From contig JAURPG010000106.1 in assembly GCA_030835405.1 (NCBI GenBank), positions 6,067-70,066 of the forward strand: 64,000 bases of DNA. Direction: 5' to 3'. The translations under genes and the position numbers were made by a program. Shown here piece by piece: positions 2,011 to 25,117 of the stretch; position 1 is the first letter of the stretch, and the number at the start of each line of letters is the position of its first letter. The stretch is from Gammaproteobacteria bacterium (lineage in GTDB: Bacteria; Pseudomonadota; Gammaproteobacteria; Eutrophobiales; Eutrophobiaceae). The notes under the pieces were generated by a model that saw nothing but the letters and a program-made list of their open reading frames with translations, ran no database searches and was not told the DNA's origin.

Positions 2011-2154
2011 ATGGAAGCGTCTAATAAGCATACTATTCGTATTGTATCCGGTGGTCAGACGGGGGTTGATCGCGCTGCGCTGGATGCGTTGGACCGATAT
2101 ATGCCAATACATGAGCTTTTAAAAAAGGCGGGTAATTCTGGAATTCCGATCTGA
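2011..2154 (+). pseudogene. Truncated N-terminal remnant (47 codons) of a SLOG/YpsA-like (putative molybdenum-carrier, PF12694-like) gene at the left edge of the AT-rich island
   Basis: It translates as MEASNKHTIRIVSGGQTGVDRAALDALDRYMPIHELLKKAGNSGIPI*. The I-SGGQTGVDRAALDA signature normally opens a protein of about 150-180 aa, and here it stops after 47 codons where the base composition drops sharply. Confidence 0.4.
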
Positions 2155-2321
2155 TATACGAGATCATACTAAACAGACTAAATCCATATATAAATCTATT
2201 TCGAATCCTGAATGAATCCTTGTCCGAAATATATATACCAGGTGTCCGTATGATTATTAATTGAAGATCAAACATCACATGAATTTCTGGTAGATAATAC
2301 AGTTTCAATATTTTCAGTTTT

Positions 2322-3107
2322 ATGAAAATTCGTCCTCAATATGTTAAACAGTCAAATCCGTTACAGTTATCTGTAATACAATTTACTGATACACATATAC
2401 ATTCTGGTTCAAAGACACTTTTGCATGGTATAGATAGTTCAGAAACCCTCAAGTCGATAGTTAGACATATCAATGAACTTGAGACGCCGGACGTAATCTT
2501 GCTTACTGGTGACCTTGTGGAAATACCGGATGAAGAATCATACCTTAAGTTGAGGGCAATACTTACAGAACTCAAAGCCCCGGTCTTTTGTTTACCAGGA
2601 AACCATGATTGCCCTGCGCTTATGTATAGATTGATGAATTATGAAAATATCAAAACTGATAAATTAATAAGGGGGGAGGACTGGCAACTAATACTCCTTA
2701 ATTCAATGATGCCCGGAGAAATGTATGGGTACTTGGATAAAGCAGAAACAGTATTTCTTGAAAAAGCAATTCAGGATTTCAATGATGGGTATTCGTTAGT
2801 TGCATTACATCATCATCCTGTAAAAGTTAACAGTCCCTGGATGGATACTATGGTTCTTGAGAACGCAGATAATTTTTTTCAGATACTTGAGTCAGGCCAT
2901 AATGTAAAAATAGTAATATGTGGACATATCCATAATGAATTGGAACTGTGCATAAATGATATCCTGATACTGGGAACACCTTCGACGAATGTTCAATATA
3001 TACTCGATTCGCAACAACCCGGGTACAATACTAAACTCCCGGCATACAGGAAGATAACACTTGGCGCATCAGGATTAATTGATTCAAACATTACCTGGAT
3101 TGGTTGA
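2322..3107 (+). CDS. Calcineurin-like metallophosphoesterase (CpdA/Icc class III phosphodiesterase-like)
   Basis: The metallophosphoesterase motifs are present in order: DTH, GDLVE, GNHD, HHHP and GHIHN. Confidence 0.7.
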   Translation: MKIRPQYVKQSNPLQLSVIQFTDTHIHSGSKTLLHGIDSSETLKSIVRHINELETPDVILLTGDLVEIPDEESYLKLRAILTELKAPVFCLPGNHDCPALMYRLMNYENIKTDKLIRGEDWQLILLNSMMPGEMYGYLDKAETVFLEKAIQDFNDGYSLVALHHHPVKVNSPWMDTMVLENADNFFQILESGHNVKIVICGHIHNELELCINDILILGTPSTNVQYILDSQQPGYNTKLPAYRKITLGASGLIDSNITWIG

Positions 3108-3124
3108 TTCATTTATTAATAGTT

Positions 3125-3825
3125 TTAAATATTGTAGTTATATTTATTTACTGCATCTCTTAACTCACTATACAGCGCATTGTCTTGCAAGTTTTTCCAA
3201 GTCACGCTGTCATCCCCGCTTTTGTCGCCATGTGTATTAAAGTCCTTTGGATGTTGCGCGAGTGCAGAATCTATTTTGGCCCAGGAAGCTTTAAATCCGA
3301 CTATATCAAGTATATTGGCAAGTAGATTACGGTCCAGGTCCTCAATTCTGTAGCGAAAGTAGTTTAGATGTTTCTGACGTTCTGCCTGCTCTGTAATAAG
3401 GTTCCAGTAAATCCAGTATTTTATTGATTTCTCAAACGGTGACCCGGGATTGATATCAGGGCAGTGTTGTAAAGCAAATGCGAGTGTGCGGACTACCCGC
3501 TCACGTTCAAAAAACCTGATTCTGAGCTTTGACCGGACGACTTCTAATGGATCACGTATCTGGTGAAAAACTATCGTCCCGGGGGGAACATATGGGAGAT
3601 ATGGTGCAGCTAACCATGATGATTCCCCCAATTTTGAAATACAGGAATACGCTCCGGGTATACAATTTCCTTTGCCTTTAGGAAAGTTGTTAATGTGTCA
3701 TCCGTTTTCAGGTTCCTTAAATTATAAAAACTTTCTTCGCCACAGGTGCATCCAAGTAAACCTAACAACGTAGCCATATACTGGGTTCCCGATCTACCAC
3801 AACCAGTAATGATAAATTGTTTCAA
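3125..3825 (-). pseudogene. Sulfotransferase split by a frameshift into two ORFs (3610-3825 N-terminal part, 3125-3631 C-terminal part)
   Basis: The N-terminal piece carries the PAPS 5'-phosphosulfate-binding loop (ITGCGRSGTQY). The C-terminal piece carries the 3'-phosphate-binding RDP-x5-S region (IRDPLEVVRSKL). The two pieces are in different frames and overlap at a C5/G5 homopolymer (3625-3629). Confidence 0.55.
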
Positions 3826-4976
3826 TTGGGCCTTCCTGTAACAATTGAATTTATGGCTAATATGAATCTTTCAGCAATTAGATCAAAACTCAGATTTCTA
3901 TCATAATAATCACGAATGGCATGGGAGTATTCTCCGTATTTTTCAGTGGGGATATCCAGTACCCTCTGTGATAATTCATCTGAATTACTAATATCAAATA
4001 ATGTACCAAACTGATTATTGCCAGTCAGGTACTGGAACGAAGGTATTTTTGTAACAACAGGTATAACCCCACATGCCATTGCTTCCACAAGGGAGTTTCC
4101 ACCATATTCAGTATGACTCGCCTGTAAAAAGAAATCTGCGCTGTTATAAAAATTTTCCATTTCATCAAAATCCATGGGGCCCAGTAAGTGCACGGCATTT
4201 CCAAGCTTGTCAGATTTCTGTAAAAAATCATTGACGGTATCAATCAGTTCATTGGTTTGATGGACCCAGTACAGTCGTGCACCAGGTCTCATCTGTAAAA
4301 TATTTTCAAATCCCATGAGTAAGGTTAAAGGATCTTTGACCGGATGAAGCCGGCTTGTAGCCACGCATATGGGATCCCCGGACATTCCGGTTCTGGCCCG
4401 CGCTTCTGCACGATCCAATCTACTGAAGAAACTTGATGTTTCCGGGCAAATTGATACACGAGTTGTTGGTGAAATTAAATTTGCCTCTTCCCATATTGCT
4501 TTTCTTTCAGGTGCATTGATAAGCAATACCGATATTTTTTCCATAGCCTGTTTTTGCAGGCTGCGATAATCATAGTCAGCTGCGGGGTTACTTCCATGAA
4601 AAGAAGCAGATAATATTATTGATCTTGAATTACAAACTTCGGCTACTGTTAATATATCGGCGGGTAATATACCAAAAATATGAATTATGTCAGGATTGAA
4701 TTCATTAATGACCCTGGTTAATGATTCAGGACTGATATGTTTTGACATTAAATTTTCAATGCCACCCGTAAATGGCCTGGATTCAATCGTACGAAGATGG
4801 CCAGAAGTAAAACTGAAAACCTTCTCACTGGAGTAACCCTGGACCCAGATTGCCTCATTTGATTTTTTTACCAAGGCTTTGGTGAATTCTCTGGGATGAA
4901 AATATTGTTTTACCAGGACATCCAGGGAACCAAAATTCCCATCAAAAATCGGGTTCAAAAGGATTATTTTCAACAT
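3822..4976 (-). CDS. Glycosyltransferase family 4 (GT-B fold, group 1)
   Basis: The C-terminal region has the GT4 sugar-donor-binding motif EYGGNSLVEAMACGVIPVVT (E-x7-E). Size is 384 aa. Confidence 0.75.
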   Translation of the reverse strand: MLKIILLNPIFDGNFGSLDVLVKQYFHPREFTKALVKKSNEAIWVQGYSSEKVFSFTSGHLRTIESRPFTGGIENLMSKHISPESLTRVINEFNPDIIHIFGILPADILTVAEVCNSRSIILSASFHGSNPAADYDYRSLQKQAMEKISVLLINAPERKAIWEEANLISPTTRVSICPETSSFFSRLDRAEARARTGMSGDPICVATSRLHPVKDPLTLLMGFENILQMRPGARLYWVHQTNELIDTVNDFLQKSDKLGNAVHLLGPMDFDEMENFYNSADFFLQASHTEYGGNSLVEAMACGVIPVVTKIPSFQYLTGNNQFGTLFDISNSDELSQRVLDIPTEKYGEYSHAIRDYYDRNLSFDLIAERFILAINSIVTGRPN

Positions 4977-5164
4977 ATTAATATTATATAAATTATATGC
5001 CAGTTAATTAACTTACGGCGAACATTTCGGTTAACCGGGAAACGCATACACTACATTCGATAATAATAACATCTTATACTAAGGCAATTATGAAATTCCG
5101 TTACTGTCCCGGATAAACTGTTGCCCTATGGGGCCGTTTTTCAAGGATTGCTTAATTGTGCCTT

Positions 5165-5947
5165 TTAATCAACACATCCATTTTCAATAGATGACAGGCA
5201 TTTGTTATATGTTGCCACCGCTTCATTCAACAGGTGTGACGGAATATCAATTTTAACGCGGTCCTCTACCTTGAGAATTTTTCCTGATTTAATCCTGTTC
5301 GATGGGTCTCCACGATAACCGGTATATCTATATAATTTGTACGTAGTCGATAATGAATGTTTCAGGTTGAGAAATTTCTGCAATCTTTCGAGTGTGACGG
5401 AAGATTCTTCAATCAAGTCCTCGTATTTTATTAATATGGAATTATCTGGAAGAGAAACGCCTTTAGCAATTTGTTCAATATTATTTATTCGACTAATATA
5501 GTATCGTGTTCCGCGTTCAACCGGCCAATTACCATATATAGGTTCAAACGTATTGACTATGCTGGATATTGTTTCTTCGGGTCTTCTCAGCAGAAATATT
5601 CTTTTTAATCCCGGATAATTTAGCACGTCGATATTCGGTGTCATTTTTTCATGATTGATCTGGTCAATAATTATTTTTCCATGGCTGAGAATTATTCTTT
5701 GCTGTTTGCAAATATCCAGGGCCAGGGTATTAAGATCCTCGATATCGTGGTAAGTTTTATTTCTTTCGCCACCTGCAATTATTTCTGGATGACTTGCCAG
5801 TAAATGCAGTAATAAAGTAGAACCAGAGCGCATGTGCCCAAGGATAAATGCGTACTTTTCCTGGCATTGCAGCCGGTTAATATACACGACCAGTTGCTTC
5901 TGGAAATCTGAATACCATTTTATTAATCTCGATTCTTCTCTGTCCAT
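5165..5947 (-). CDS. PAPS-dependent sulfotransferase
   Basis: It has the ILGHMRSGSTLL P-loop-like 5'-PSB motif near the N-terminus and is 260 aa. Confidence 0.65.
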   Translation of the reverse strand: MDREESRLIKWYSDFQKQLVVYINRLQCQEKYAFILGHMRSGSTLLLHLLASHPEIIAGGERNKTYHDIEDLNTLALDICKQQRIILSHGKIIIDQINHEKMTPNIDVLNYPGLKRIFLLRRPEETISSIVNTFEPIYGNWPVERGTRYYISRINNIEQIAKGVSLPDNSILIKYEDLIEESSVTLERLQKFLNLKHSLSTTYKLYRYTGYRGDPSNRIKSGKILKVEDRVKIDIPSHLLNEAVATYNKCLSSIENGCVD

Positions 5948-6092
5948 GTTGTTATTCCGATGCAGGCTATTACCTCTATAAAAAAGAACCAGTTAGAATT
6001 ATTGCTGTAAACTCAATCATAAACAAATAATCAATTTATGTTGAATTATTCAATTGCTGTGACACCATAATTTTAGAAACTGAATATCAAAT

Positions 6093-7271
6093 ATGTCACT
6101 GGTTATAAAAAATGTAATGTTACCAGATTGTGATCTGGCGAATGCTTTCTGTTTATCAACGAATTCTAATTCAGTCTGTTTCCGGAGCGCTGACAGTTTC
6201 GGGAAAAATGATGATGTTCTTGATCTTGATGAAGGCATGATCGCATTTCCGGGTATTATTAATTCTCATGATCACCTTGATTTTAATGATTTCCCATTGC
6301 TTCAGACCAGGATTTACGATGACTATATCGACTGGGCAAAAGACATTCATGAAAATGATAATTTCAAATATCAGATCGCCAGTTCAAAAAAAATTCCTTA
6401 TGAGAATAAAATGTTAACTGGATTAATCAAAAATCTCGTTTGCGGGATTACAACAGTAGTCAATCATGGAATAAAATCCAATACCAGGTATGAAGGAATA
6501 GAAATCCACGATCACTGTAGAATTTTACACTCAGATAAATATGAAACATGGCTGCCGATTAAAATTAATATCCCGTTTAATACCGCACCGGTAACAATAC
6601 ATATAGGTGAAGGCAAGACGGGCAGAGTAAGGCAGGAGATTGGCAGGGTACTGAAGTATAATCTGTTAAATAAAAAAATTATCGGAATACATGGAATAAC
6701 AATGGACTGTGGACAGGCAAAAAAAATCACTGCGCTGGTATGGTGTCCAGAATCGAATATTCAGCTGTATGGAAGGACAGCTTCGGTCGGGGAACTTGGC
6801 AGGTATACATCAATACTATTTGGAACGGATTCGACACTTACAGCTGACTGGAATATATGGAAACACATCAGGACCGCGAGAAATCTGGCGTATTTAGGCG
6901 ACGAGGAATTATTTTATACCTTGAACAGTAACCCGGCCAGGATATGGGGTAAATCATCAGCAGAATGCTTGACTGGTATGCAGGTGCCTGATGTGGTGTT
7001 TGCAAGGCGTAGAAAAAAGGATTACTGGGACAGTTTTTACATGACAGATCCCGAAGTAATTATGCTTGTATTTAAAAATGGCAAACCGGTTTTAATTGAT
7101 CAATCCATTTTCAAAATTTTGCAAAAAAAAATGCCAGAGTATGCAAAGTGGGGAATGATCAGGGTCCAGGATTCAATAAAATATATTCCATCCAGCCTGC
7201 TCAGGCAGTTTCAAAATGGTTATATATTCAAACAGATGCCGGTCGAAATTTTAAACACAAGTATTAACTAA
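6093..7271 (+). CDS. Metal-dependent amidohydrolase (chlorohydrolase/cytosine-deaminase-like superfamily)
   Basis: GIINSHDHLDFN carries the HxH metal-binding motif at the first beta-strand, with further His and Asp residues downstream. Size is 392 aa. Confidence 0.6.
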   Translation: MSLVIKNVMLPDCDLANAFCLSTNSNSVCFRSADSFGKNDDVLDLDEGMIAFPGIINSHDHLDFNDFPLLQTRIYDDYIDWAKDIHENDNFKYQIASSKKIPYENKMLTGLIKNLVCGITTVVNHGIKSNTRYEGIEIHDHCRILHSDKYETWLPIKINIPFNTAPVTIHIGEGKTGRVRQEIGRVLKYNLLNKKIIGIHGITMDCGQAKKITALVWCPESNIQLYGRTASVGELGRYTSILFGTDSTLTADWNIWKHIRTARNLAYLGDEELFYTLNSNPARIWGKSSAECLTGMQVPDVVFARRRKKDYWDSFYMTDPEVIMLVFKNGKPVLIDQSIFKILQKKMPEYAKWGMIRVQDSIKYIPSSLLRQFQNGYIFKQMPVEILNTSIN

Positions 7272-7325
7272 CACGATATATTATTAGTCCACGCCTCATT
7301 ACAAAAAACAGGGACAGAAATCAGC

Positions 7326-8321
7326 ATGCCGGCAAATATGACAGCAGAAGATATTCTTGGATATCAGGGGAACCTGGATCATGAGAGAATTTACCCACTC
7401 CTGGGAGTGACTGTTAAAATTCGAAGTAACGATGTAAAGATAATTAAAAATGCCGATATTGCCCTGGGACACTGGAATAACGCTGGTAATGATTTCGATG
7501 TAGACAATTCAAACTTGTGTCTGGACATCATTTTACAGGAAGAAGCGGAAATTAATTCATCAGGGGAAGAACATTTATTTATTCACAGGTATCGCGATGA
7601 TATATACCTAGCAAATTGTGATAAAAATATACTCGTGGCATTTAGAAATGCAGGCAAGGGACTGGCTTATGTAACTGAAGGTTTGGTTAATGATATTCAG
7701 GGGTTTAACTGGTTTGTCGTTGAGGCATTGTCATTATTTCTCGTGACATATCGACGTCGTGTACCCGTTCATGCGTCAGCTGTAACGAATGGTAAACTGG
7801 CTGTTGCTTTTATGGGGAAAAGCGGTGCTGGTAAATCAAGTTTGGCCTATGTTTTTATGAAGCATGGGTTCGACCTTCTTGCTGAAGATGTGATCTATTT
7901 TGGGATGGAAGACGATTTTAGAATATGGGGAAACTCCACAAAAATCCATTTACTACCAGATGCAATAAAGCTGTTTCCAGAATTATCAAACTGTGTCCCT
8001 GTAAAAAGGCCAAACGGAAAAATTAAAATACAAGTACCGGTAAATGACGTCGGTAAGATAAAACCAGTTCATTGTGTAAAAAATATTGATATCTGCCTGC
8101 TAAAACCGGACCGTAACAGCAGGGACAGCCGGATTGAACCTATTACACCAGATTACCTCAGGGACTATCTATTGTCCTCATTGGAACCGGGTTTTAATAT
8201 TGAACTGGATAGTTTAATGATATCCATGGAAAAGTTACTAAAGCAAAGACTGTACCTTTTAACGGTAGGAAGCGATATTGATGCGGTTCCTGATCTTGTT
8301 TCGGAAATCCAGGATATATAA
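7326..8321 (+). CDS. HPr kinase (HprK) C-terminal-domain-like P-loop protein, the type of predicted peptide/small-molecule kinase found in RiPP and lasso-peptide clusters
   Basis: HASAVTNGKLAVAFMGKSGAGKSSLAYVFMKHGFDLLAEDVIYF contains a Walker A (GxSGxGKS) followed by the L-x-x-DD element typical of the HprK C-terminal domain. The N-terminal half is unrelated to HprK. Confidence 0.6.
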   Translation: MPANMTAEDILGYQGNLDHERIYPLLGVTVKIRSNDVKIIKNADIALGHWNNAGNDFDVDNSNLCLDIILQEEAEINSSGEEHLFIHRYRDDIYLANCDKNILVAFRNAGKGLAYVTEGLVNDIQGFNWFVVEALSLFLVTYRRRVPVHASAVTNGKLAVAFMGKSGAGKSSLAYVFMKHGFDLLAEDVIYFGMEDDFRIWGNSTKIHLLPDAIKLFPELSNCVPVKRPNGKIKIQVPVNDVGKIKPVHCVKNIDICLLKPDRNSRDSRIEPITPDYLRDYLLSSLEPGFNIELDSLMISMEKLLKQRLYLLTVGSDIDAVPDLVSEIQDI

Positions 8322-8420: not shown

Positions 8421-9854
8421 GTGGTTGACATACTCCTCGCCCATGCTTTTTATATTACCAATGATACTAAACAGCGTGAAGAAAAGTTTCGCCCATATCC
8501 GCCGCTAGCAACCTTGTATGCTGCAAGTATTTTGAGAGACTCCGGGTATGAAGTCGCACTGTATGATGCGACTCTTGAGCAAAATGAGGATTCATTTCAG
8601 GAAATTTTCAATGATGTTAACCCTCGTTTATTGATTATCTATGAGGACAATTTCAATTTTTTGAGCAAGATGTGCCTGACACATGTAAGGGAAGCCACGT
8701 TACGAATGGCAAAGACCGGAAAAGATGCAGGTACCTCGGTAATTGTATGTAGTTCAGATGCCAGTGATGACCCATCAACCTACCTGGCTTGTGGAGTAGA
8801 TTATGTCATCCTTGGAGAGGGTGATGTAACAGTTAAGGAACTATCAGATAATTTATTGCAACAGTCTTCAATGGACATTGGCACGATTCCCGGTATCGCT
8901 TATATCAATGGAGACAGGGACATTTCCCAGTCACCCAGGCGTATGAACCTTAGAGACCTTGACAGCATTCCTTTTCCTGCCAGAGACCTGGTTGATATTG
9001 AGAATTATAGAGACGCATGGGAAAGCGTACATGGTTATTTTAGCATGAGTATGGTTACCACCCGGGGATGTCCATATGCCTGTACCTGGTGTGCCAAACC
9101 TATCTGGGGAAAAAGCTATGCAGTCAGGTCACCCGAAAATGTTGCCGAAGAACAGGCGTTGTTGAAACAGCATTGTTCACCTGATCATATTTGGTTCATG
9201 GACGATATATTTGGACTTAAACCAGGCTGGATTGAAAGGTATTCACTGGAGGTAAATGCAAGGGAAGCAAATATCCCGTTTATGATACAGACGCGGGCAG
9301 ATTTAATGAATCCCGAAGTCGTTAAAAGCCTTGCCGATGCCAATTGTGAAGAAGTGTGGCTCGGGGCTGAAAGCGGTAGTCAATCGGTCCTTGATTCAAT
9401 GAAAAAGGGTATAACCGTAGAGCAGATTCATGAAGCCCGGCGGTTACTGGGTAATGAGGGTATCAGGACATGTTTTTTTATCCAGTTCGGTTATCCTGGG
9501 GAGACGCTGGAGGACATCAGCTTAACCGTGGACCTGGTACGATCCGCTTTACCAGACAACATAGGCGTCAGCGTAAGTTACCCCCTGCCGGGTACCGAAT
9601 TCCATGAACTTGTTATGAATGAGATTAATGAAAAAACCCACTGGAATGAAAGCAATGATCTTGAAATTATGTTTGAAGGCGCATATGATTCGAGCTATTA
9701 CCGTAAGCTTGGAAAATTCCTGCACCGTGATCTAGATGCCCGCCTGGGTATAAGCAATGAAGATTTGAATGTTTTGCAGTGTGAATGGGAACAGCTTGTT
9801 GATTCAGCACGGAATTATGAAGCCACTGCTTCAGAAACCAGTAATACTGTTTAA
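8421..9854 (+). CDS. B12-binding domain radical SAM enzyme (class B rSAM; probable methyltransferase or other carbon-centred modifier)
   Basis: The N-terminus is a Rossmann-like cobalamin-binding region (ILLAHAF...PPLATLYAASILRDSGYEVALYDA). The rSAM cluster is RGCPYACTWC (CxxxCxxC). The annotated start is GTG. The gene sits in an operon-like array with the next four genes. Confidence 0.8.
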   Translation: MVDILLAHAFYITNDTKQREEKFRPYPPLATLYAASILRDSGYEVALYDATLEQNEDSFQEIFNDVNPRLLIIYEDNFNFLSKMCLTHVREATLRMAKTGKDAGTSVIVCSSDASDDPSTYLACGVDYVILGEGDVTVKELSDNLLQQSSMDIGTIPGIAYINGDRDISQSPRRMNLRDLDSIPFPARDLVDIENYRDAWESVHGYFSMSMVTTRGCPYACTWCAKPIWGKSYAVRSPENVAEEQALLKQHCSPDHIWFMDDIFGLKPGWIERYSLEVNAREANIPFMIQTRADLMNPEVVKSLADANCEEVWLGAESGSQSVLDSMKKGITVEQIHEARRLLGNEGIRTCFFIQFGYPGETLEDISLTVDLVRSALPDNIGVSVSYPLPGTEFHELVMNEINEKTHWNESNDLEIMFEGAYDSSYYRKLGKFLHRDLDARLGISNEDLNVLQCEWEQLVDSARNYEATASETSNTV

Positions 9855-9870
9855 ACACGAGTGAGTATTC

Positions 9871-11277
9871 ATGCCTGACTTAATCCTGACACACGGTTAT
9901 TTCCTGTGTGAAGACCCAAAAGAACAGGAAATTATGAAACCATATGCCCCTCTGGGCCTGATGTATTTGTCTGCATATCTAAAGGGCAAAGGATTTAATG
10001 TCGAAATTTTTGATTCGATGTTTTCAAATCGAGAAACGCTGGAAGAATTTCTCAGAAATAATGCCAATGGTGTCCTTGGCATATATACAAATTTAATTAC
10101 CCGGTCGAGCGTACTCAATATTATTTCAATGGCAAAAAAACATGGATTTCAAGTCATTCTTGGCGGCCCTGAATCTGCAAACTATCCGCAAGAATATCTG
10201 AATCATGGTGCCGACGTGATTGTCCTGGGAGAAGGAGAACAGACCCTGGAAAAACTATTACCTGCCATTCAGAATCCCGGTTCGGCAGGCCTTCAGGCTG
10301 TTGATGGTATCGTTTTTAAAGATAAATCTGGTAACCTGATCACTACTAATCCGAGAATATCACCCAATGATCTTGCTATTTACCCCTGGCCCGACAGGGA
10401 ATCCATAGATATAAGGAAATATCTGCAGGTCTGGCGTGATCATCATGGGCTTGGCAGTATCAGTATGATTACTGCAAGGGGCTGTCCCTATCGTTGCACA
10501 TGGTGTTCCCATGCAGTTTACGGCTACAGCCATCGACGGCGTAAGCCGGCCGATTGTGCCAGTGAGCTTGACTACATCATGAATGAATATTCTCCGGATC
10601 AGATATGGTATGCGGACGATGTATTTACCATAAGCCATCCATGGTTATATGAGTATTCAGCCCAGTTAAAAAACAGGGGATTGAAAGTGCCGTTTGAAAC
10701 AATTTCCCGCGCAGACAGGCTAATGAAACCGGAAGTTTTGGACACGCTTGTAGAGATGGGTTGTGATCGAATCTGGATTGGCTCGGAGAGCGGCAGTCAA
10801 AAAATACTCGATGCAATGCAACGTGATGTGACAGTGGAGCAGATTCAGTGGGCCTCACATGAGCTGAAAAAAAGGGGGATAAAAGTCGGTATGTTTCTTA
10901 TGTGGGGTTACGGGAATGAAACACTTGAGGATATTGAAAAAACAGTGGAACACGTAAAAATTTCTGACCCGGATGTTTTTTTTACTACAATTGCCTATCC
11001 TATTAAAAATACGCCTTTTTATAACGAGTTCAGTGACAGCATAACAATGTCCGGAGATTGGGCTTCGGGTACGGATAGGGATTATAAAATATCAAATCAA
11101 CGGGGCCCTGAATATTATAAGGCTGCTGACATTCTGCTGTTTAATTCTGTTGAGGCTTCCCGTAATCAATATAGCGACCACAAAGAAAGTTTAATACATA
11201 AAAAACTTGCAGATGATGCAAGGTTATACTTACAGGAATATGAACGAAAGCACATCATCAATAAGACAGGTATTTAA
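9871..11277 (+). CDS. B12-binding domain radical SAM enzyme, a tandem paralogue of the upstream gene
   Basis: The architecture is the same: PYAPLGLMYLSAYLKGKGFNVEIFD followed by RGCPYRCTWC (CxxxCxxC). Blocks such as SPDQIWYADDVF match SPDHIWFMDDIF in the upstream paralogue. The gap to the upstream gene is 16 nt. Confidence 0.8.
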   Translation: MPDLILTHGYFLCEDPKEQEIMKPYAPLGLMYLSAYLKGKGFNVEIFDSMFSNRETLEEFLRNNANGVLGIYTNLITRSSVLNIISMAKKHGFQVILGGPESANYPQEYLNHGADVIVLGEGEQTLEKLLPAIQNPGSAGLQAVDGIVFKDKSGNLITTNPRISPNDLAIYPWPDRESIDIRKYLQVWRDHHGLGSISMITARGCPYRCTWCSHAVYGYSHRRRKPADCASELDYIMNEYSPDQIWYADDVFTISHPWLYEYSAQLKNRGLKVPFETISRADRLMKPEVLDTLVEMGCDRIWIGSESGSQKILDAMQRDVTVEQIQWASHELKKRGIKVGMFLMWGYGNETLEDIEKTVEHVKISDPDVFFTTIAYPIKNTPFYNEFSDSITMSGDWASGTDRDYKISNQRGPEYYKAADILLFNSVEASRNQYSDHKESLIHKKLADDARLYLQEYERKHIINKTGI

Positions 11278-12034: not shown

Positions 12035-12954
12035 AACATTCCCGCGATTGGCAAGGAATATGTCCTGTCTGTAAATCAGAAATAGGAACCCTGACATGGC
12101 CGGGAAAGAATATTGATTGTGGTGATTGTCTGGAATCATTTAAATCAATAGAGGGGATTTATCAGCTTATACAACCAGGGCGTCTCAATGCCTATAAGCA
12201 GTTTCTGGACGATTATACCAGCATAAGAATTGCAGAAGGCCGGGGTGATCATGGCCATGATTACTATTGCCGACTGCCAGAGCCCACTGTGTCGGACCCA
12301 TTATCATGGCAATGGAAAATCAGAAGTAAGAGCTTCAAAACCCTGGTATCTGTACTGGATCTGGAATCTACCAGGCAACGCAGAATCCTTGATCTGGGTG
12401 CCGGAGTGGGGTGGTTGTGTCATCGTGTGGCATCATTGGGGCATTACCCCATAGCAATTGATATCAACATGGATGAAATGGATGGACTCAGGGCAGGAAG
12501 GTTTTATGACAGGAGCTGGCCCTGCATACAGGCTGAATTCGATAACTTGCCCATCCAGAATGAACAGGCAGATTTGGCCATATTCAATGCGAGCTTACAC
12601 TACAGCACAGACTATTACGGTACTCTGAAAGAAGCACTAAGGGTCCTGAGGGGGGATGGGCAGTTAGTGATAATCGATTCACCAATATACAGACGGCCCG
12701 ACAGTGGTATCAATATGAAGTTACAACGACACGAATTTTTTAATAAGGTATACGGTTTTAGATCTGACAGTATTGACAGTATTGAATTCCTGACCTGGGG
12801 AATGCTTGAAGAGTTGGAGAAAAAACTCGAAGTAAAATGGAGGATAATCAGGCCATGGTATGGATTACGATGGGCTATGCGCCCGCTGACATATGCAGTT
12901 AAAGAATCGCGCGAAGCATCAACATTTGCAATTTTAATGGGAACCCGGGCCTGA
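12031..12954 (+). CDS. Methyltransferase with an N-terminal 4-Cys zinc-ribbon (Trm112-like) domain
   Basis: The N-terminus has CPVC...CGDC. Downstream lies SAM motif I, ILDLGAGVGW. The gene is translationally coupled on both sides. Confidence 0.6.
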   Translation: MKHSRDWQGICPVCKSEIGTLTWPGKNIDCGDCLESFKSIEGIYQLIQPGRLNAYKQFLDDYTSIRIAEGRGDHGHDYYCRLPEPTVSDPLSWQWKIRSKSFKTLVSVLDLESTRQRRILDLGAGVGWLCHRVASLGHYPIAIDINMDEMDGLRAGRFYDRSWPCIQAEFDNLPIQNEQADLAIFNASLHYSTDYYGTLKEALRVLRGDGQLVIIDSPIYRRPDSGINMKLQRHEFFNKVYGFRSDSIDSIEFLTWGMLEELEKKLEVKWRIIRPWYGLRWAMRPLTYAVKESREASTFAILMGTRA

Positions 12955-13961
12955 TGAATAAATTGACATCCTTGCCTGCAAACGACGATATGGTTAAACA
13001 ACTACCAATCATGGTTTTAATGCTTAAATCAGATTGCAACTGTCGCTGCACGATGTGTGATATCTGGAAAGGAAATTCCAGCGAGTCACTGGAATATGAT
13101 GGTGTTAAGGATCTGGTGAAGCAACTTCAATCTCTAGATACACATGAGATTGTACTCAGTGGCGGCGAGCCATTGATGCACAGGGAAATCGAGTCGGTTT
13201 GCAGGTTATTGTCGACAATGAATTTCAGAGTCACCCTGATTACTACAGGATTGTTACTCAAACGTCATGCGCAATGGATTAGTAAATATATCGATCAAAT
13301 ATACATCAGTCTTGATGGACCAGAAAAAGTACATAATTCTATCAGGAACATTCCAGGTGCTTATGTAAAAATTAAAAAAGGTGTGGAAGCAGTCCGGCAT
13401 TACAGACCGGACATTAATATTGGAGCACGTTGTACCATACAAAAACAAAATTACAGGTATATCGGTGATACTGTCGATGCAGCCAGGGAGTTGGGTATGA
13501 ACACCATCAGTTTCCTGGCAGCAGATGTCAAGGCTGAAGTTTTTGGCAGGACCAGTGACTGGAAAGATAACGGGATTGCCCTGACCGGTACAGAGCTTTC
13601 TGAGCTTGAAGATATTCTTCAGCAATTTTTCATAAATTATAAAAATGATTTTGATTCAGGATTTATAGTTGAAGATAGAAATAAATTACAGACAAAACTA
13701 CTAGATTATTATCACGCCCTCAGTACGGACAGGAATTTCCCCGGGGTGGATTGTAACGCACCATGGGTTTCAGCAGTCGTAGAAACAAACGGAAAAGTAA
13801 GGCCCTGTTTTTTTCATAAACCCTATGATGAAGCTCTGGATAATAAATCCGTCAATGAGATCATTAATTCTGATACGGCAAAAAAATGGAGAAAAGAACT
13901 GGACGTCAAAACCAACGATATCTGTCGAAGCTGTGTTTGTTCGCTTTCGTATGGCGTATGA
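12954..13961 (+). CDS. Radical SAM enzyme with a C-terminal SPASM/twitch-like Cys cluster
   Basis: The rSAM cluster is CNCRCTMC (C-x3-C-x2-C). The C-terminal region has additional cysteines (C...C...CRSCVC) compatible with auxiliary Fe-S cluster ligation. Confidence 0.7.
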   Translation: MNKLTSLPANDDMVKQLPIMVLMLKSDCNCRCTMCDIWKGNSSESLEYDGVKDLVKQLQSLDTHEIVLSGGEPLMHREIESVCRLLSTMNFRVTLITTGLLLKRHAQWISKYIDQIYISLDGPEKVHNSIRNIPGAYVKIKKGVEAVRHYRPDINIGARCTIQKQNYRYIGDTVDAARELGMNTISFLAADVKAEVFGRTSDWKDNGIALTGTELSELEDILQQFFINYKNDFDSGFIVEDRNKLQTKLLDYYHALSTDRNFPGVDCNAPWVSAVVETNGKVRPCFFHKPYDEALDNKSVNEIINSDTAKKWRKELDVKTNDICRSCVCSLSYGV

Positions 13962-14039: not shown

Positions 14040-15230
14040 TTGTATTATTATTCATTAATCATATTGAGTCAGTTAGATTTGAGTCCGTCACTGAACATCG
14101 TTTTTATCACCCCGGGAGGTGTGGACAGGAGTGGCCGTGAAAGGGTCATACCACACTTTTTATGGCTGCTTGAAAAGCTCTCGTTAAATCATAATGTAAA
14201 AGTGATAAGTTTATTTCAGTATGATTCTGCCTGTGAATATTCACTTAACGGCATACAGATTTCTGTTCCCGGGAAGATACGGCAAGACTGGAAAACTGAT
14301 AAGGAACCCGGGACAGTATTGAATGATTTGTACGAAGCATGTATCGCATACCTGGATCCTGCTGAACCGGTTGACATTGTCCATGGCTTGTGGGGATTTC
14401 AGGCCGGTTGGATTGCCACCAGAATTGCATCTTCGTTAAAGATTCCTTCTGTAGTGAGTTTGATGGGAGCCGAGTTTGTATCTTTTCCGGACATCAAATA
14501 TGGTGGGCAGTACTGGGAACATCAACGGTTGACATTAAATGATACTTTAAAAAATGCCACTGCATTAACTGTTGCAAGTCACTTTATGCAAGATATGGCT
14601 TCCGCATACAGTATAGAAACTGATTACATACCTTTTGGCGTACATGAGTCCTGCTTTCAGGACAACGGGGCACTGGATATTCCAACCTGGCGACTCCTGA
14701 CTGTTGCGAGTATAAATAGAATAAAGGATTTTTTTACCTTGATTGAGGCCTTCAGGATAGTTGTTGATGAAATCAATGATGTTCAACTGGATATTATTGG
14801 TGAAGATGTCATGGATGAGGAAATACAGGCGTTATCTGACAGATTATGTCTGACTAATCATGTTAACTTTCATGGATTCCTGCCAAATGACGAGATACGG
14901 AAATATTTCCAGAGGGCACATCTGTATGTGGTTACCTCGATAAACGAAACCGGACCAATAGCCATGCTGGAAGCTGCGGCTTGTAAAGTAGCAACTGTGG
15001 GAACCAAAGTTGGATATGTATCTGACTGGGACGGTAAACGCTCACTGGCTGTGGAGTCCCAGAGCCCTGGTAAGCTTGCAGTGCAGATAATCTATCTGAT
15101 AAAGCACGAACCAGTCCGAAAAAATCTCGGTATGGCCGCATATAAATGGGTTCGGGAGTATGATGTAAACTGGACTTCTAACAGACTAACTAAACTTTAT
15201 CTTGACCTGATAAATAATCATATGGATTAA
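14040..15230 (+). CDS. Glycosyltransferase family 4 (group 1); the true start is probably downstream of the annotated ATG
   Basis: The C-terminal region has ETGPIAMLEAAACKVATVGT, the E-x7-E GT4 signature. The first 15 or so codons (MYYYSLIILSQLDL...) look non-coding. A TTG near IVFITPGG is a plausible alternative start. Confidence 0.65.
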   Translation: MYYYSLIILSQLDLSPSLNIVFITPGGVDRSGRERVIPHFLWLLEKLSLNHNVKVISLFQYDSACEYSLNGIQISVPGKIRQDWKTDKEPGTVLNDLYEACIAYLDPAEPVDIVHGLWGFQAGWIATRIASSLKIPSVVSLMGAEFVSFPDIKYGGQYWEHQRLTLNDTLKNATALTVASHFMQDMASAYSIETDYIPFGVHESCFQDNGALDIPTWRLLTVASINRIKDFFTLIEAFRIVVDEINDVQLDIIGEDVMDEEIQALSDRLCLTNHVNFHGFLPNDEIRKYFQRAHLYVVTSINETGPIAMLEAAACKVATVGTKVGYVSDWDGKRSLAVESQSPGKLAVQIIYLIKHEPVRKNLGMAAYKWVREYDVNWTSNRLTKLYLDLINNHMD

Positions 15231-15338: not shown

Positions 15339-15526
15339 ATGTGAACCCGGAATTGCTTTGCATTTTAGATAGCACTTACTCGTAACAGGGACTAAAAGCA
15401 AGATGGAAAAACTGATTTTTAGAGGTCTTTAGCGGGATAATCCCTGTCTGTTTCAATGGTAATTAACTATATCTATGATATACAATGATTTACACTCAAT
15501 TGGCATTATGAATCGGGATAGCTAAT

Positions 15527-16462
15527 TTGAAAACACATAATATTCTTGTCCTTTTGACTGCTTGTGCAATATTGTCCTTGTTCTTGCCAGATGTCGCCTA
15601 TGCCCAGGCAACGCAGAATCAGGCAGGCACATATATCGGCACCCAGGTTTGTTCGTCCTGCCACAATGACCTTTCAGATCACTGGTCCCATACAGTGCAT
15701 TCAAAGATTTTCATGAATAACCCGGGAAATGAAATTGAGCGCCGGGGCTGTGAATCATGCCATGGCCCCGGCTCAGAGCATATAATAGATCCAACGGCGG
15801 TGGATAAAATAATCAGGTTTTCCCAAAATGCACCAAGCCCAACCGGGGAACAGAATCGATCATGTCTCCAGTGTCATGCCGGCGGAAATCGAATCCACTG
15901 GTCAAGCTCAATACACGAAAGTAATGATTTGGCCTGCGCTGATTGTCATAACCCGATGGCAAACTTCTCCTCTGTTAATCTACTGGTGCAAAACAATATT
16001 AATGAGACCTGTTTCATGTGTCACAAGGAACAACGTAGCCAGTTTAACAGGCGATCACATATGCCGTTGAATGAAGGTAAAATGTCATGCACTGACTGCC
16101 ATAACCCCCATGGCAGTAATACGGATAGCCTGCTGAAAACTGATAATGTGAATCAGACCTGTTTTCAATGCCATGCGGAAAAAAGAGGTCCTTTCCTCTT
16201 TGAACATGCCCCGGTAACCGATAATTGCCTGAACTGCCATGAACCCCATGGTTCGAACCATGAAAAATTACTGCTTACAGCCCGCCCAATGTTATGTCAG
16301 CAGTGCCACACATCCATCGGGCATATGAATGACCTGTTTACATCAGGAAATCTTGCAACGGGTAGTCGCCCGGACATACGCCTAATTGGGAGAAGTTGCC
16401 AGAATTGTCATACGCAGATCCATGGATCCAACCATCCGGCAGGATCAAAATTCCAACGGTAG
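15527..16462 (+). CDS. Periplasmic decaheme c-type cytochrome of the MtrA/MtoA/PioA family
   Basis: Ten CxxCH haem-binding motifs are spread over 311 aa (CSSCH, CESCH, CLQCH, CADCH, CFMCH, CTDCH, CFQCH, CLNCH, CQQCH, CQNCH). A signal peptide is present. The apparent start codon is TTG. Confidence 0.8.
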   Translation: MKTHNILVLLTACAILSLFLPDVAYAQATQNQAGTYIGTQVCSSCHNDLSDHWSHTVHSKIFMNNPGNEIERRGCESCHGPGSEHIIDPTAVDKIIRFSQNAPSPTGEQNRSCLQCHAGGNRIHWSSSIHESNDLACADCHNPMANFSSVNLLVQNNINETCFMCHKEQRSQFNRRSHMPLNEGKMSCTDCHNPHGSNTDSLLKTDNVNQTCFQCHAEKRGPFLFEHAPVTDNCLNCHEPHGSNHEKLLLTARPMLCQQCHTSIGHMNDLFTSGNLATGSRPDIRLIGRSCQNCHTQIHGSNHPAGSKFQR

Positions 16463-16483
16463 TATCCATATCAAATTCATCAG

Positions 16484-18973: not shown

Positions 18974-18997
18974 ACTAATTTGAAATTATTATAATAA

Positions 18998-19927
18998 ATG
19001 GGCAAGAAAAATTTTTTATCCGTAATCGTTATATGTTACAACATGATCCGGGAGGCCCCTCGAACGGTCTATTCATTATCGAAAAAATATCAGAAAAGAA
19101 TAAGACTGGAAGATTATGAAATTATCGTCATAGATAATAACTCTAGCGAACTGCTTAACAAGGAAGAAATAGAAGGAATTGGTCCCAATATTACCTATTA
19201 TTACCATGAATCCGGATCTGCCTCGCCCGTGAGTTCAATTAATTTTGGTATAGGGAAGTCCAAAGGTGAATATGTCGGCATCTTGATCGACGGGGCCCGT
19301 ATCGTAAGTCCAATGGTCCTTAACTGGGCGTTATATTCGCTGTAGACTCTTTATAATCCGTTTGTATCAACATTGAGCTGGTATTTGGGTGAAGATCAAT
19401 AGTTTATATCTGTTCCAAAAGGCTATTCCAGGGAATATGAAGATCAACTACTGGATGAAATTGACTGGAGATCCAATGGTTACAAGTTATTCTCCATATC
19501 AACATTTGCAGGCTCATCGAAGCCGGGTTTTTTTTAGTCAATTTCAGAAAGCAATGGTGTATTTTTAAGTAAAAATTTATATGAACGTGTTGGTAGATAT
19601 GATCCCGAATTTGATCTGCCAGGCGGCGGTCTATGCAACCTGGATTTTTATAAACGGGCCGTCGAATTCCCGGAAGTGACTCATGTAATATTATTGGGAG
19701 AAGGGACATTTCACCAGCACCACTATGGTATCACCATGAGCAGTCGTTCAATTGATGTCATAAACTTGCTCGACAAGTACCATGATCAATATAAGGAAAT
19801 AAGGAAAAGTGAATTTACCAGCCCAAAAACTAATCCGGTTTTTGTTGGAAATATTCCAGATAGTGTATTGCCATTTATTCAGGAATCTATTGTCAATGCT
19901 ACCGATAACAATCCTACTTGTGAATAA
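18998..19927 (+). pseudogene. Family 2 glycosyltransferase: one continuous 310-codon frame interrupted by three in-frame TAG codons (19343-19345, 19400-19402, 19535-19537)
   Basis: The N-terminus (SVIVICYNMIREAP...EIIVIDNNSS) and C-terminus (LYERVGRYDPEFDLPGGGLCNLDFYKRA) are GT2-like. ORFs 18998-19345 and 19676-19927 are in the same frame. The stretches between them translate cleanly with no frameshift, and the only interruptions are three TAG codons. Confidence 0.6.
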
Positions 19928-19957
19928 AGTTTTAGTTAGTCGAGATATTTTATTCTG

Positions 19958-21181
19958 ATGAATGATAATACATATGCAAGCAATAATGGTGAACTTGTTC
20001 TACTTTCTACCCGCCAACATATGGGCCGGGAAACGGCGGAAAAAATCAGTCTGTTATTTAAAACAGAACTGGACTGGAAAAAAATAGTTTCAATTGCAAA
20101 AAGAAACAAAGTCGTTCACCTGGTAGATAAAACCATGACCGAACACTTTGACGGCATGGTTGATTCAGAAGATTTGCAGGCACTTACTGATGAATCGCAG
20201 GTGCATTTTAAAAGTAATGAGGATAGTCTTGATTTGTTATTGGATATCAAGACACTGTTGTTGTCTGAAAGCATCCCCGTCATTTTCTTTAAGGGTATTA
20301 TCTTTGCCCATGTGTATAACAAGGACTATAAATTTCGAACACAGGGCGATATTGACATACTGGTCAGACCGGAAGATTTCCTGAAAGCAAGGGATATACT
20401 AGTAAGAAATGGTTTTGAGTCTGTTTATTTCGGTCATGCTGAAGTGTCAACTGTCCAGGCACAACTGGGCAGGAGCGACAGGCGAGCCAGCGTTGACTTG
20501 CACTATGGGGTCACCCCCCAGTACCAGCAGACCAATATGGATGAGGCATTAAGCGGAAGTAAATTTGACAAAAAATACCGTAATAAAATCGTCAAAAACC
20601 GTACCTACTGGTTTTGTCAATTTCAAACTGAAGAAATCTGGAAACGCAAAATCCAGATTGAGATAGAAGGCGAAACCATTACCACGCTGTCCCACGAAGA
20701 TACGCTCCTGGTGGCTGTCATTCATGCGGCAAAAGAAAACTGGAGATCGATGAGCAGAATAAGTGATATCACTGCGATTATAGAAACAAGCGGAAACCTG
20801 AACTGGGAAATTATCTATGAAACGGTAAGTGGATTGGGCTTTTTAAAAAAGTTTTATCTCGGTATCAGGTTAGCAAACGAGATGTATGATGTTGAATTGC
20901 CTGTAAATGTAATCAGGATGATGAATAAACATGGTTCAAAGTATCTCGCCAGACAGATTATCTTTAGACTGACCCTGGATAACTTTACTGTTGATATGGA
21001 AGAATTCAGGCGAATCGTTGCAATTATGACGATGGATTCAATCACAGATTTTTTCAGGTACCTGCAATATGTATTCAATACTCCGGCGGGTCCAACCGGC
21101 AAGGAGATAACCCAGGGAAATTTCCTGGGCTTTTTAAAGGTATTATCCGGTCAATATATACGGAAATTTCTATCCCGCTAA
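19958..21181 (+). CDS. Nucleotidyltransferase-family protein (uncharacterised NTP_transf_5-like type), as found beside HprK-like kinases and sulfotransferases in RiPP clusters
   Basis: It has the QGDIDILVRPEDF acidic motif characteristic of this nucleotidyltransferase fold. Size is 407 aa. Confidence 0.5.
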   Translation: MNDNTYASNNGELVLLSTRQHMGRETAEKISLLFKTELDWKKIVSIAKRNKVVHLVDKTMTEHFDGMVDSEDLQALTDESQVHFKSNEDSLDLLLDIKTLLLSESIPVIFFKGIIFAHVYNKDYKFRTQGDIDILVRPEDFLKARDILVRNGFESVYFGHAEVSTVQAQLGRSDRRASVDLHYGVTPQYQQTNMDEALSGSKFDKKYRNKIVKNRTYWFCQFQTEEIWKRKIQIEIEGETITTLSHEDTLLVAVIHAAKENWRSMSRISDITAIIETSGNLNWEIIYETVSGLGFLKKFYLGIRLANEMYDVELPVNVIRMMNKHGSKYLARQIIFRLTLDNFTVDMEEFRRIVAIMTMDSITDFFRYLQYVFNTPAGPTGKEITQGNFLGFLKVLSGQYIRKFLSR

Positions 21182-21333
21182 CCCCATCTATCTGGCAATA
21201 ATACCTTCAATACGACAAAAAGTTATGTAACTAACTGATTTCAATATAATTTGCCGGATTATGCATAAGGTTTTATACTCGGGTATATATGGTGCAGCTG
21301 TCACTATCAGGAAATCCAGGAGACACTTATCCA

Positions 21334-25090: not shown

Positions 25091-25117
25091 CTGGGCTGCA
25101 TAGTTAAGGAGTTTGCA

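Follow-up and report, generated by a model that had tools for sequence, protein, structure and literature searches.

The stretch of DNA considered here, hereafter the window, comprises 64,000 nucleotides (nt) of a gammaproteobacterial contig and carries between positions 2089 and 21250 an AT-rich island in which the genes of an MtrAB-type electron conduit stand among genes for glycosyltransferases, sulfotransferases and radical S-adenosylmethionine (SAM) enzymes. The best joint explanation, to which we would give a probability of about 0.55, is that the island is a long-resident accessory block at a recombination-prone site, not fresh foreign DNA, and that it holds a tailoring cassette working with the MtrAB pair. 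Its history would comprise three steps. The block would already have been present in the common ancestor of the window organism and of its relative L_MB228; the lineage of another relative, Candidatus Eutrophobius brisbanensis, would have lost the island and had the adjacent DUF1592-ankyrin block replaced; and later, in the window's own lineage, the left end would have been remodelled, the 3' part of a SLOG gene and the neighbouring Ald gene giving way to a divergent cpdA-like gene and a sulfotransferase gene (now reading as a pseudogene) and leaving a SLOG stub of 47 codons.

The window stems from an uncultured gammaproteobacterium, marine or estuarine, that belongs to the order UBA4486/Eutrophobiales, a lineage known from estuarine and marine waters through uncultured members (PMC11758582, PMC8371827), with a small genome and a planktonic way of life, and described as a facultative methylotroph (PMC8371827). 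Its nearest species-level genome is the metagenome-assembled genome (MAG) of E. brisbanensis, from the same order. Species-representative genomes were scanned with the SRAP protein encoded near the left end of the window, which gave two informative loci. In E. brisbanensis (locus L003; SRAP 87% identical) the site is empty: a family-less protein of 498 amino acids (hyp498), SRAP, a SLOG protein of 161 amino acids, an Ald remnant of 74 amino acids, DUF1592, DUF1552, an ankyrin protein, an AI-2E transporter, an amidase and a DUF692 protein are encoded in succession. The full-length SLOG gene that an earlier sequence-only reading of this DNA had proposed to look for at an empty site is thus found there. 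The Ald remnant consists of the last 74 codons of the gene (L003 9210-9434, minus strand), lies between the intact SLOG gene and DUF1592, and reads as a deletion scar at this seemingly empty site. In the MAG L_MB228 (locus L004; SRAP 74%), to which contig L062 also belongs (100% identity over 3594 nt), the left end comprises hyp498, an extra sulfotransferase-like gene, SRAP, and genes for a SLOG protein of 165 and an Ald protein of 369 amino acids, after which comes the entire island, with site and gene order as in the window: GT4 glycosyltransferase, sulfotransferase, amidohydrolase, HprK-like protein, two B12-binding radical SAM enzymes, two methyltransferases, a SPASM enzyme, a second GT4, MtrA, MtrB, a GT2 glycosyltransferase and an NTP_transf_5 protein. 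DUF1592, DUF1552, ankyrin and AI-2E genes follow on its right. The island is therefore not conserved in all relatives, as the sequence-only reading had expected when it called for this comparison, being absent from E. brisbanensis and present in L_MB228.

The divergence of the two island copies is not recent. Protein identity between the window and L_MB228 is 54-76% within the island and 80-92% in the right flank, with 74% for SRAP and 97% for hyp498. Synonymous divergence (pS) from L_MB228 is saturated both in the island (0.70-0.89) and in the flanks (0.67-0.75), so that as a dating tool it supports "not recent" and nothing finer; the ratio of nonsynonymous to synonymous divergence (pN/pS) lies between 0.16 and 0.38 for every island gene compared. 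Since pS is saturated and pN/pS low, the block has been under purifying selection for long, and the lesions of the GT2 gene described below would be recent. As to the branching order, identities of the window to E. brisbanensis and to L_MB228 are, respectively, 87 and 74% for SRAP, 94 and 83% for the AI-2E transporter, 94 and 89% for DinB, and 91 and 80% for DcaP, a pattern pointing to a species tree in which E. brisbanensis, not L_MB228, is the nearer relative of the window. Because these flank genes group the window with E. brisbanensis, an island shared by the window and L_MB228 is most simply ancestral.

The GC-rich block to the right of the island departs from this pattern, with identities to E. 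brisbanensis and L_MB228 of 69 and 84% for DUF1592, 73 and 92% for DUF1552, and 58 and 80% for the ankyrin protein. In these three proteins E. brisbanensis is equidistant from the others, at 71, 74 and 56% to L_MB228 and 69, 73 and 58% to the window. A three-way sliding alignment places the switch in nucleotide identity at about 27020, at the start of the AI-2E gene. The discordant unit would accordingly span about 2089-27020 and include both the AT-rich island and the GC-rich block, so that the right boundary of about 21.25 kb drawn from the sequence alone falls short of the phylogenetically discordant segment, which extends to about 27.0 kb. A loss in E. brisbanensis is favoured because the Ald deletion scar lies there and because its block is the equidistant outlier.

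Base composition changes abruptly at both borders. The GC content is 51.3% in 1-2010, 40.4% in 2011-21250, 49.1% in 21251-27500 and 43.1% in 27501-64000; measured over 200 nt at a time, it steps down around 2100 from 0.48-0.50 to 0.30-0.40 and up around 21400 from 0.33-0.40 to about 0.49-0.52. The AT-rich tract reported from the sequence alone is thus confirmed, with a fall at about 2.1 kb and a rise at about 21.4 kb, and the sliding GC analysis proposed with it did find steps at both borders and no uniform composition; yet GC at third codon positions (GC3) is native. In GC content the tract is only 2.7 points lower than the housekeeping part of the window. The right half of the window (32-64 kb) encodes ordinary gammaproteobacterial functions (queA, tgt, secDF, murA, hisGD, petABC, sspAB, RNase P RNA and the mraZ-mraY cell-division cluster). 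GC3 is 0.387±0.040 in the island genes and 0.394±0.041 in 28 housekeeping genes of the window (Mann-Whitney p = 0.58), and the difference in total GC of the genes (0.406 vs. 0.429) sits in codon positions 1 and 2. The genes of the GC-rich flanks, on the other hand, are compositional outliers (GC3 0.46-0.58), and in raw tetranucleotide frequencies the island correlates with the core at 0.95, against 0.81 for 21.25-31 kb and 0.42 for 1-2010. Because the island matches the housekeeping genes in GC3 and its GC-rich neighbours stand out, the abrupt drop is a step from atypically GC-rich flanks to genome-typical composition. In L_MB228 the island is likewise AT-rich (38% GC, against 45-48% in its flank).

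Several hallmarks of mobile elements were searched for. No integrase, recombinase or transposase occurs among the open reading frames (ORFs) of 1-32 kb (Pfam and NCBIfam); flanking direct (att) or terminal inverted repeats are limited to short, chance-level repeats, none of which pairs the two borders; and the sole tRNA gene of the window, tRNA-Leu(caa) at 31970-32056, is 10.7 kb from the right border. No plasmid counterpart of the island was found. Of the properties of a genomic island, presence/absence polymorphism is observed (lacking in E. brisbanensis, present in L_MB228), and a foreign composition is not (GC3 p = 0.58 and raw tetranucleotide correlation 0.95, relative to the 32 kb core). 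A classical mobile genomic island was thus rejected for want of mobility genes, border repeats and an adjacent tRNA, and for its native synonymous composition. The former description of the island as horizontally acquired holds to the extent that it is accessory, being absent from the closest relative found; as recent foreign DNA it is not supported, given these same grounds, the identical site and order in L_MB228 and the saturated pS.

The left border was previously taken for the scar of the island's insertion. The SLOG fragment there is genuine: residues 11-26 match positions 1-16 of the 145 of the Pfam cpYpsA profile (26.0 bits, cut-off 26.2), the complete SLOG domain of about 145 profile positions is not contained in 2011-2154, and the intact homologues, said to be about three times longer, are indeed of 161 (E. 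brisbanensis) and 165 (L_MB228) amino acids. DNA homology to both relatives ends at position 2088, i.e., at SLOG codon 26, so that codons 1-26 (2011-2088) are homologous to the relatives' gene and the final 21 codons are unrelated sequence. The remnant is identical in a second assembly, and a third contig from this population spans it at 99.96% identity. As an insertion scar, nevertheless, it is contradicted by L_MB228, where the island stands together with intact SLOG and Ald genes, and for this reason the arrival of the island and the truncation of SLOG are separate events. The truncation seems rather to belong to a lineage-specific swap of the SLOG 3' part and Ald for the module at 2089-3825, which has no counterpart in the E. 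brisbanensis or L_MB228 locus. The module encodes a CpdA-like phosphodiesterase (NF008359, 187.6 bits, under the cut-off of 225) with one close homologue at 98% identity, presumably from the same species, and a next best of 44% among 5.8 billion proteins, and a sulfotransferase pseudogene with no orthologue in any fetched locus. This pseudogene is split between two frames that are rejoined by adding one base at a run of five C residues (3625-3629), and a homopolymer sequencing error is a possible cause. In the left end, short-read contigs from this population break off at 2238 and 3385, which is compatible with strain-level heterogeneity without proving it.

The island includes the genes of the conduit. 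Against TIGR03508 the MtrA/DmsE-family cytochrome reaches 264.5 bits (cut-off 192.2), and its match in the solved MtrCAB complex (6R2Q) is chain A, with an E value of 1e-65; the MtrB/PioB-family barrel scores 257.7 bits against TIGR03509 (cut-off 240.05) and matches chain B with an E value of 1e-18. All on one strand, mtrA and mtrB are 21 nt apart, and gaps of 24-30 nt separate mtrB, the GT2 gene and the NTP_transf_5 gene. No MtrC-like surface cytochrome is encoded by the island or by those neighbouring genes that were called in the other loci, and for this reason mtrAB is assigned as a PioAB/MtoAB-style conduit, its porin forming a sheath around the periplasmic cytochrome, which is predicted to carry electrons across the outer membrane.

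In a collection of 5.8 billion proteins, the window MtrB has 12 homologues at 42% identity or more, and genomic contexts were available for six of them (42-64% identity), giving with the window a sample of seven loci. B12-radical SAM genes lie within a few genes of mtrA in all seven and directly adjacent to it in five, and most of these loci also hold orthologues of the methyltransferase, HprK-like, SPASM, amidohydrolase, GT4/GT2 and sulfotransferase genes. The seven loci vary in how their genes are ordered and oriented and in GC content (40-58%). Pairwise identities of MtrB and of the first B12-radical SAM enzyme co-vary across six loci (r = 0.78; the pairs are non-independent and the p value is nominal). 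More remote MtrB homologues (30-34% identity) lie on 5 kb contigs too short to judge linkage; in one case (P0014) the next gene has weak cytochrome c matches. The claim that any novel system of this window would live in the island is borne out insofar as the window's most unusual gene association, MtrAB with B12-radical SAM enzymes, lies there. An alignment-based scan of metagenomes with the first B12-radical SAM enzyme returned more than 514 relatives, mostly from soil, and 38 loci of at least 9 kb were examined. The second paralogue is present in 38/38, methyltransferase 1 in 34/38, methyltransferase 2 in 17/38, SPASM in 14/38 and MtrAB in 0/38, and several loci also hold relatives of the NTP_transf_5, HprK-like and amidohydrolase genes. 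Because the cassette is common without MtrAB, it would have a general function, to which one MtrAB clade became attached. No description of an association of MtrAB with radical SAM enzymes was found in the literature, nor of a cassette of HprK-like, nucleotidyltransferase, B12 and SPASM proteins, and PF14907 appeared in one unrelated mention.

The features of the island and its borders are collected in Table 1. Between 6093 and 21181 the plus strand holds 15 co-oriented genes of the island, and two to three more are on the minus strand. A profile of five amidohydrolase orthologues matches deaminases of the PDB (E values 4e-10 to 2e-5). The HprK-like protein has weak matches to TIGR04355 and TIGR04352, and its profile matches the P-loop region of HprK alone (E value 4e-8). 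Both B12-binding paralogues have the features of class B radical SAM enzymes, an N-terminal B12-binding domain and a CxxxCxxC core (CPYACTWC and CPYRCTWC); their best scores of 117-131 bits against named NCBIfam equivalogs (HpnJ, BchE, PhpK, QCMT/MJ_0865 and the ladderane type) are far from the cut-offs of 360-600. Their nearest solved structures are QCMT (9CCB), a protein glutamine C-methylase (PMC12931638), and AprD4 (6FD2), and for the SPASM enzyme the closest solved structure is BlsE (7VOB), a sugar decarboxylase. A family related to the NTP_transf_5 protein is present in eight soil loci. The longest ORF of the first methyltransferase gene begins with a TTG at 11207 and shares 71 nt (11207-11277) with the B12-radical SAM gene before it; the real start is probably the ATG at 11240 since the orthologue aligns from residue 12. 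The sequence-only reading had described the content as biosynthetic, tailoring or electron-transfer genes, which is accurate save for the CpdA-like phosphodiesterase, the sole item outside these classes.

Table 1. Position, strand and main support of the features of the island, its borders and the adjoining block (window coordinates)
Feature	Position	Strand	Support or remark
cpYpsA/SLOG gene remnant	2011-2154	+	47 amino acids; Pfam cpYpsA
Lineage-specific left-end module	2089-3825	.	Stands where relatives have the SLOG 3' part and Ald gene
CpdA-like phosphodiesterase	2322-3107	+	NF008359
Sulfotransferase pseudogene	3825 to 3125	-	One frameshift at the C5 run
GT4 glycosyltransferase (GT4a)	3822-4976	-	Pfam Glycos_transf_1; L004 orthologue at same place, 60% identical
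Intact sulfotransferase	5165-5947	-	Pfam Sulfotransfer_3 and Sulfotransfer_1; L004 orthologue 56% identical
Amidohydrolase superfamily, deaminase type (TRZ/ATZ, guanine, MTA/SAH deaminase group)	6093-7271	+	HxH motif (SHDHLDF)
HprK-related P-loop kinase-like protein	7326-8321	+	Pfam Hpr_kinase_C, 25.5 bits, under cut-off
Two paralogous B12-binding radical SAM enzymes	8421-9854, 9871-11277 (8421-11277)	+	Pfam B12-binding (PF02310) and Radical_SAM (PF04055) in both
Two class-I SAM methyltransferases	~11240-12034, 12031-12954	+	Pfam Methyltransf_25/11/31
Radical SAM/SPASM enzyme	12954-13961	+	Pfam Radical_SAM, Fer4_12, SPASM
GT4 glycosyltransferase (GT4b)	14040-15230	+	Pfam Glycos_transf_1, 92.9 bits
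Decahaem periplasmic c-type cytochrome, MtrA/DmsE family	15527-16462	+	Signal peptide, ten CXXCH; TIGR03508
MtrB/PioB-family outer-membrane beta-barrel, 829 amino acids	16484-18973	+	TIGR03509; Pfam MtrB_PioB, 342 bits
GT2 glycosyltransferase frame with three TAG codons	18998-19927	+	Intact orthologue of 305 amino acids in L062, 70% identical
NTP_transf_5 (PF14907) nucleotidyltransferase-like protein, last island gene	19958-21181	+	Pfam, 142 bits; orthologue at same place in L062
GC-rich block: DUF1592/PSD cytochrome, DUF1552, ankyrin protein, ORF of 111 amino acids	21289-27020	+	In all three genomes

No polytopic membrane protein is predicted among the island proteins (2-21 kb), and all products except MtrA and MtrB appear to be soluble cytoplasmic enzymes. 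Pfam and NCBIfam searches of the island gave no flippase, polymerase, ABC transporter or exporter, and no initiating transferase; some related loci elsewhere do carry ABC transporters. By this gene content, the island alone should be unable to make and export a polymer. Rfam detected no riboswitch or other RNA in the island, its sole matches in the window being the tRNA-Leu and the RNase P RNA, both outside it, and promoter and terminator scans gave counts no higher than in shuffled sequence. Two further candidate identities were dismissed. A cluster for a ribosomally synthesized peptide with post-translational modifications (RiPP) was rejected as the intergenic gaps hold no plausible precursor ORF and Pfam and NCBIfam gave no PqqD/RRE; an ORF of 46 amino acids beside the HprK-like gene in locus L067, taken as a potential RiPP precursor, is not conserved. 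An anti-phage defence island was rejected as PADLOC returned generic radical SAM core similarity alone (pVip, 59 bits over the core).

The GT2 gene is one of the two genes that the sequence-only reading had listed as decayed, the other being the frameshifted sulfotransferase, and both lesions are present. It forms a single frame with in-frame TAG codons at 19343, 19400 and 19535, a TAA stop at 19925 and no indel. The three TAG codons all align with glutamine (CAG, CAA and CAA) in the intact orthologue, the middle one falling on a glutamine invariant in 117 of 120 homologues, and the frame is the second best conserved gene of the island relative to L_MB228 (pN/pS 0.21). CAG-to-TAG transitions would fit these stops, and we roughly estimate the chance of all three nonsense changes landing on CAG at 0.04. 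Amber codons may instead be read through as glutamine; no suppressor tRNA is encoded within the window. With glutamine restored, the GT2 protein has no match above 71%, and no exact MtrB product is on record. As a cross-check of the TAG codons and of the sulfotransferase frameshift, exact DUF1552 matches were found on contigs shorter than 3 kb alone, and other assemblies of the population end at 2238 and 3385. The notion of a partly decaying cassette is not sustained: the other island genes compared have a pN/pS of 0.16-0.38, two genes are affected and one of the two lesions is possibly a sequencing artefact.

As for function, the soluble enzymes would build or tailor a sugar-containing molecule made partly elsewhere, by glycosylation, radical C-methylation or sugar rearrangement, SAM-dependent (O- or N-) methylation, phosphorylation or nucleotidylation, and sulfation. 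Removal of 5'-deoxyadenosine and S-adenosylhomocysteine (SAH), by-products of the radical SAM and SAM enzymes, would probably fall to the amidohydrolase. A carbohydrate chemistry is supported by the sugar-modifying AprD4 and BlsE among the nearest solved relatives. Export and assembly would be encoded elsewhere, and the tailored glycoconjugate would work with the conduit, either as an anionic surface or periplasmic component conditioning the contact with metal or mineral, or as a redox-active partner. In its strongest form, which we put forward very tentatively, this MtrAB clade could be an obligate partner of the B12-radical SAM/methyltransferase/SPASM/HprK-like/NTP_transf_5 cassette; the two would make up a hitherto unnoticed system, in which a molecule heavily modified by methylation, sulfation, phosphorylation or glycosylation is required for extracellular electron transfer or redox-cycled by it.

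Regarding history, the alternative closest to the sequence-only reading is that a foreign AT-rich cassette was recently integrated into the SLOG gene, truncated it and is now decaying. The sharp GC steps at both ends, the intact SLOG gene at the vacant site of the closest relative, the two inactivated genes and the breaks of same-population short-read contigs at 2238 and 3385 in the left end all speak for such an insertion. However, the coexistence of the island with intact SLOG and Ald genes in L_MB228 largely refutes it, and it has to account for the absence of mobility genes, end repeats and an adjacent tRNA, for a native GC3 with the flanks as outliers, and for saturated pS with a pN/pS of 0.16-0.38 against the orthologous island; moreover, one of the "decayed" genes fails at a homopolymer and may be an artefact. 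We therefore hold it for highly improbable. An allelic replacement is unlikely but deserves more weight. Here the window's lineage would have received the segment from 2089 to about 27020 through homologous recombination, the donor being an island-bearing relative closer to L_MB228, and its common ancestor with E. brisbanensis would have had no island. It is the reading to which the DUF1592, DUF1552 and ankyrin proteins lend themselves, being closer to L_MB228 (84, 92 and 80%) than to E. brisbanensis (69, 73 and 58%), the reverse of the outer flanks; the identity switch at about 27.0 kb is sharp and the site is indel-rich in general. Yet the equidistance of E. brisbanensis in this block fits equally well with its own copy being the replaced one, a donor would not have been close to L_MB228 given an island only 54-76% identical with saturated pS, and the Ald remnant points to a deletion at the E. 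brisbanensis site. A long-resident island lost from E. brisbanensis is thus preferred. Besides the affinity of the GC-rich block, other observations weigh against our interpretation, in its historical or its functional part. The species tree is that of four flank genes, not of whole genomes; the composition baseline called "core" is 32 kb of this window alone, and the tetranucleotide z-score correlation between island and core (0.32-0.57) is below that within the core (0.62-0.69), so that the signatures are not identical. The cassette is widespread without MtrAB (0/38 soil loci) and hence has a conduit-independent function; the nearest solved relative of the first B12-radical SAM enzyme is the protein methylase QCMT, so that a sugar is only a candidate substrate; finally, we infer both the product and its link to MtrAB from gene context only.

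Two other functions were weighed against a glycoconjugate working with the conduit. Without any coupling, the mtrAB genes might simply lie in a region of variable envelope genes and hitch-hike with a glyco-tailoring cluster to which they are unrelated, as the frequency of the cassette without MtrAB and the tendency of accessory envelope genes to cluster would allow; some of the MtrAB linkage could also be inherited synteny. We consider an absence of coupling improbable given that the linkage is found in 7/7 loci although their genes are rearranged in order and orientation, their GC spans 40-58% and MtrB divergence reaches down to about 41%, and given the position of the window's mtrAB inside a single-strand array with gaps of 21-30 nt to its neighbours. 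Alternatively, the cassette could mature the conduit, through B12-radical SAM methylation, HprK-like serine phosphorylation and NTP_transf_5/glycosyltransferase transfer on MtrA, MtrB or another exported protein. Pairs of an HprK-like kinase and a nucleotidyltransferase do tailor peptides in some lasso-peptide clusters, QCMT is the nearest solved relative of the first B12-radical SAM enzyme, and a B12-radical SAM gene is directly beside mtrA in 5/7 loci. Against this, all 38 long soil loci have the cassette without MtrAB, no precursor peptide and no PqqD/RRE gene were found, and the similarity to QCMT is remote (75 bits), which makes maturation of the conduit, too, a poor candidate.

No route of electrons across the outer membrane is better understood than conduits of the MtrAB type, which are usually considered together with cytochrome partners alone. 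An MtrAB clade that travels with B12-radical SAM and glyco-tailoring genes would point to an unstudied accessory requirement for, or product of, extracellular electron transfer, and the linkage gives a first clue to the function of a B12-radical SAM cassette very common in soil metagenomes. In one soil lineage (L113, L116, L125, L128 and L145; e.g., L128 17907-20071, minus strand), the cassette adjoins genes for a CarboxypepD_reg protein and a dihaem cytochrome c, and for a third protein, about 450 amino acids long, with an N-terminal CXXCH and no match to a Pfam or NCBIfam family. The latter might be a fused cytochrome-porin (Cyc2-like) candidate; if so, coupling to outer-membrane redox proteins would have arisen twice. 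The locus is also a worked example of a misleading GC step, the AT-rich tract being native in synonymous composition and its GC-rich neighbours atypical, and comparison with the relatives resolves what seemed a single event into three, namely the island's residence, the remodelling at its left end and the replacement of the block on its right.

A few observations concern the neighbourhood. The DUF1592/PSD-type cytochrome c (823 amino acids, two CXXCH) and the DUF1552 protein (HXXSHH) form a GC-rich pair at 21289-25090, next to the island site in all three genomes and independent of the island; such pairs are typical of Planctomycetota and Verrucomicrobiota. On the left, the longest ORF of the SRAP gene (1337-1990) starts at a TTG five codons upstream of MCGRF, and the product matching the record starts at the ATG (1975), in keeping with the need of the SRAP family for Cys2 as N-terminal nucleophile. 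The hyp498 gene (52% GC) occupies 96-1241 and extends to the left of the window (498 amino acids in L001). Its product is 97-99% identical across the three genomes while the neighbouring SRAP is 74-87% identical, with nucleotide identities of 94-96% and about 74%, respectively, which reflects either extreme constraint or a recent exchange between these lineages. Farther left in the same strain (L001 4484-4921 and 6585-9238), the neighbourhood is also rich in indels: E. brisbanensis lacks a phasin gene, and neither relative has the MoCoBD/Fer2 (xanthine-dehydrogenase-like) pair. In the housekeeping part, the RNase P RNA is at 55829-56162 on the plus strand (Rfam, 334 bits), and an overlapping minus-strand ORF of 206 amino acids (55510-56130) is spurious.

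Among known systems, the conduit most resembles PioAB and MtoAB, the two-component relatives of Shewanella MtrCAB, in which a decahaem MtrA/DmsE cytochrome likewise adjoins a large MtrB/PioB porin; the window pair differs in having no adjacent CymA- or MtoD-type partner and in being embedded among glycosyltransferases, sulfotransferases and B12-radical SAM genes, in a host lineage not known for iron oxidation or reduction. With surface-glycan loci (O-antigen or capsule) the island shares a GC content below that of its flanks, a fixed site between conserved genes, presence or absence among relatives, proteins diverging faster than those of the flanks, occasional pseudogenes, a lack of mobility genes and signs of recombination in the flanks. 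Unlike them, it has no flippase, polymerase, ABC transporter, initiating phosphoglycosyl transferase, nucleotide-sugar synthesis or polytopic membrane protein, and does have three radical SAM enzymes together with an electron conduit. Sugar-modifying radical SAM pathways (hopanoid HpnI/J/K, AprD4, BlsE and aminoglycoside C-methylases) similarly place B12-radical SAM and SPASM enzymes beside glycosyltransferases, and HpnJ is among the best NCBIfam matches, yet with 116 bits against a cut-off of 577.6; the island has no hopanoid or aminoglycoside pathway genes, and the nearest structure of all is QCMT. Finally, a sporadic distribution among relatives and sharp compositional borders recall tRNA-linked, integrase-borne islands, from which the present one differs by the absence of an integrase and of direct repeats, the nearest tRNA at 10.7 kb and its native synonymous composition. 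It is best filed as a long-resident, recombination-shaped variable locus, in which the linkage of MtrAB with B12-radical SAM enzymes is new within a known type of conduit.

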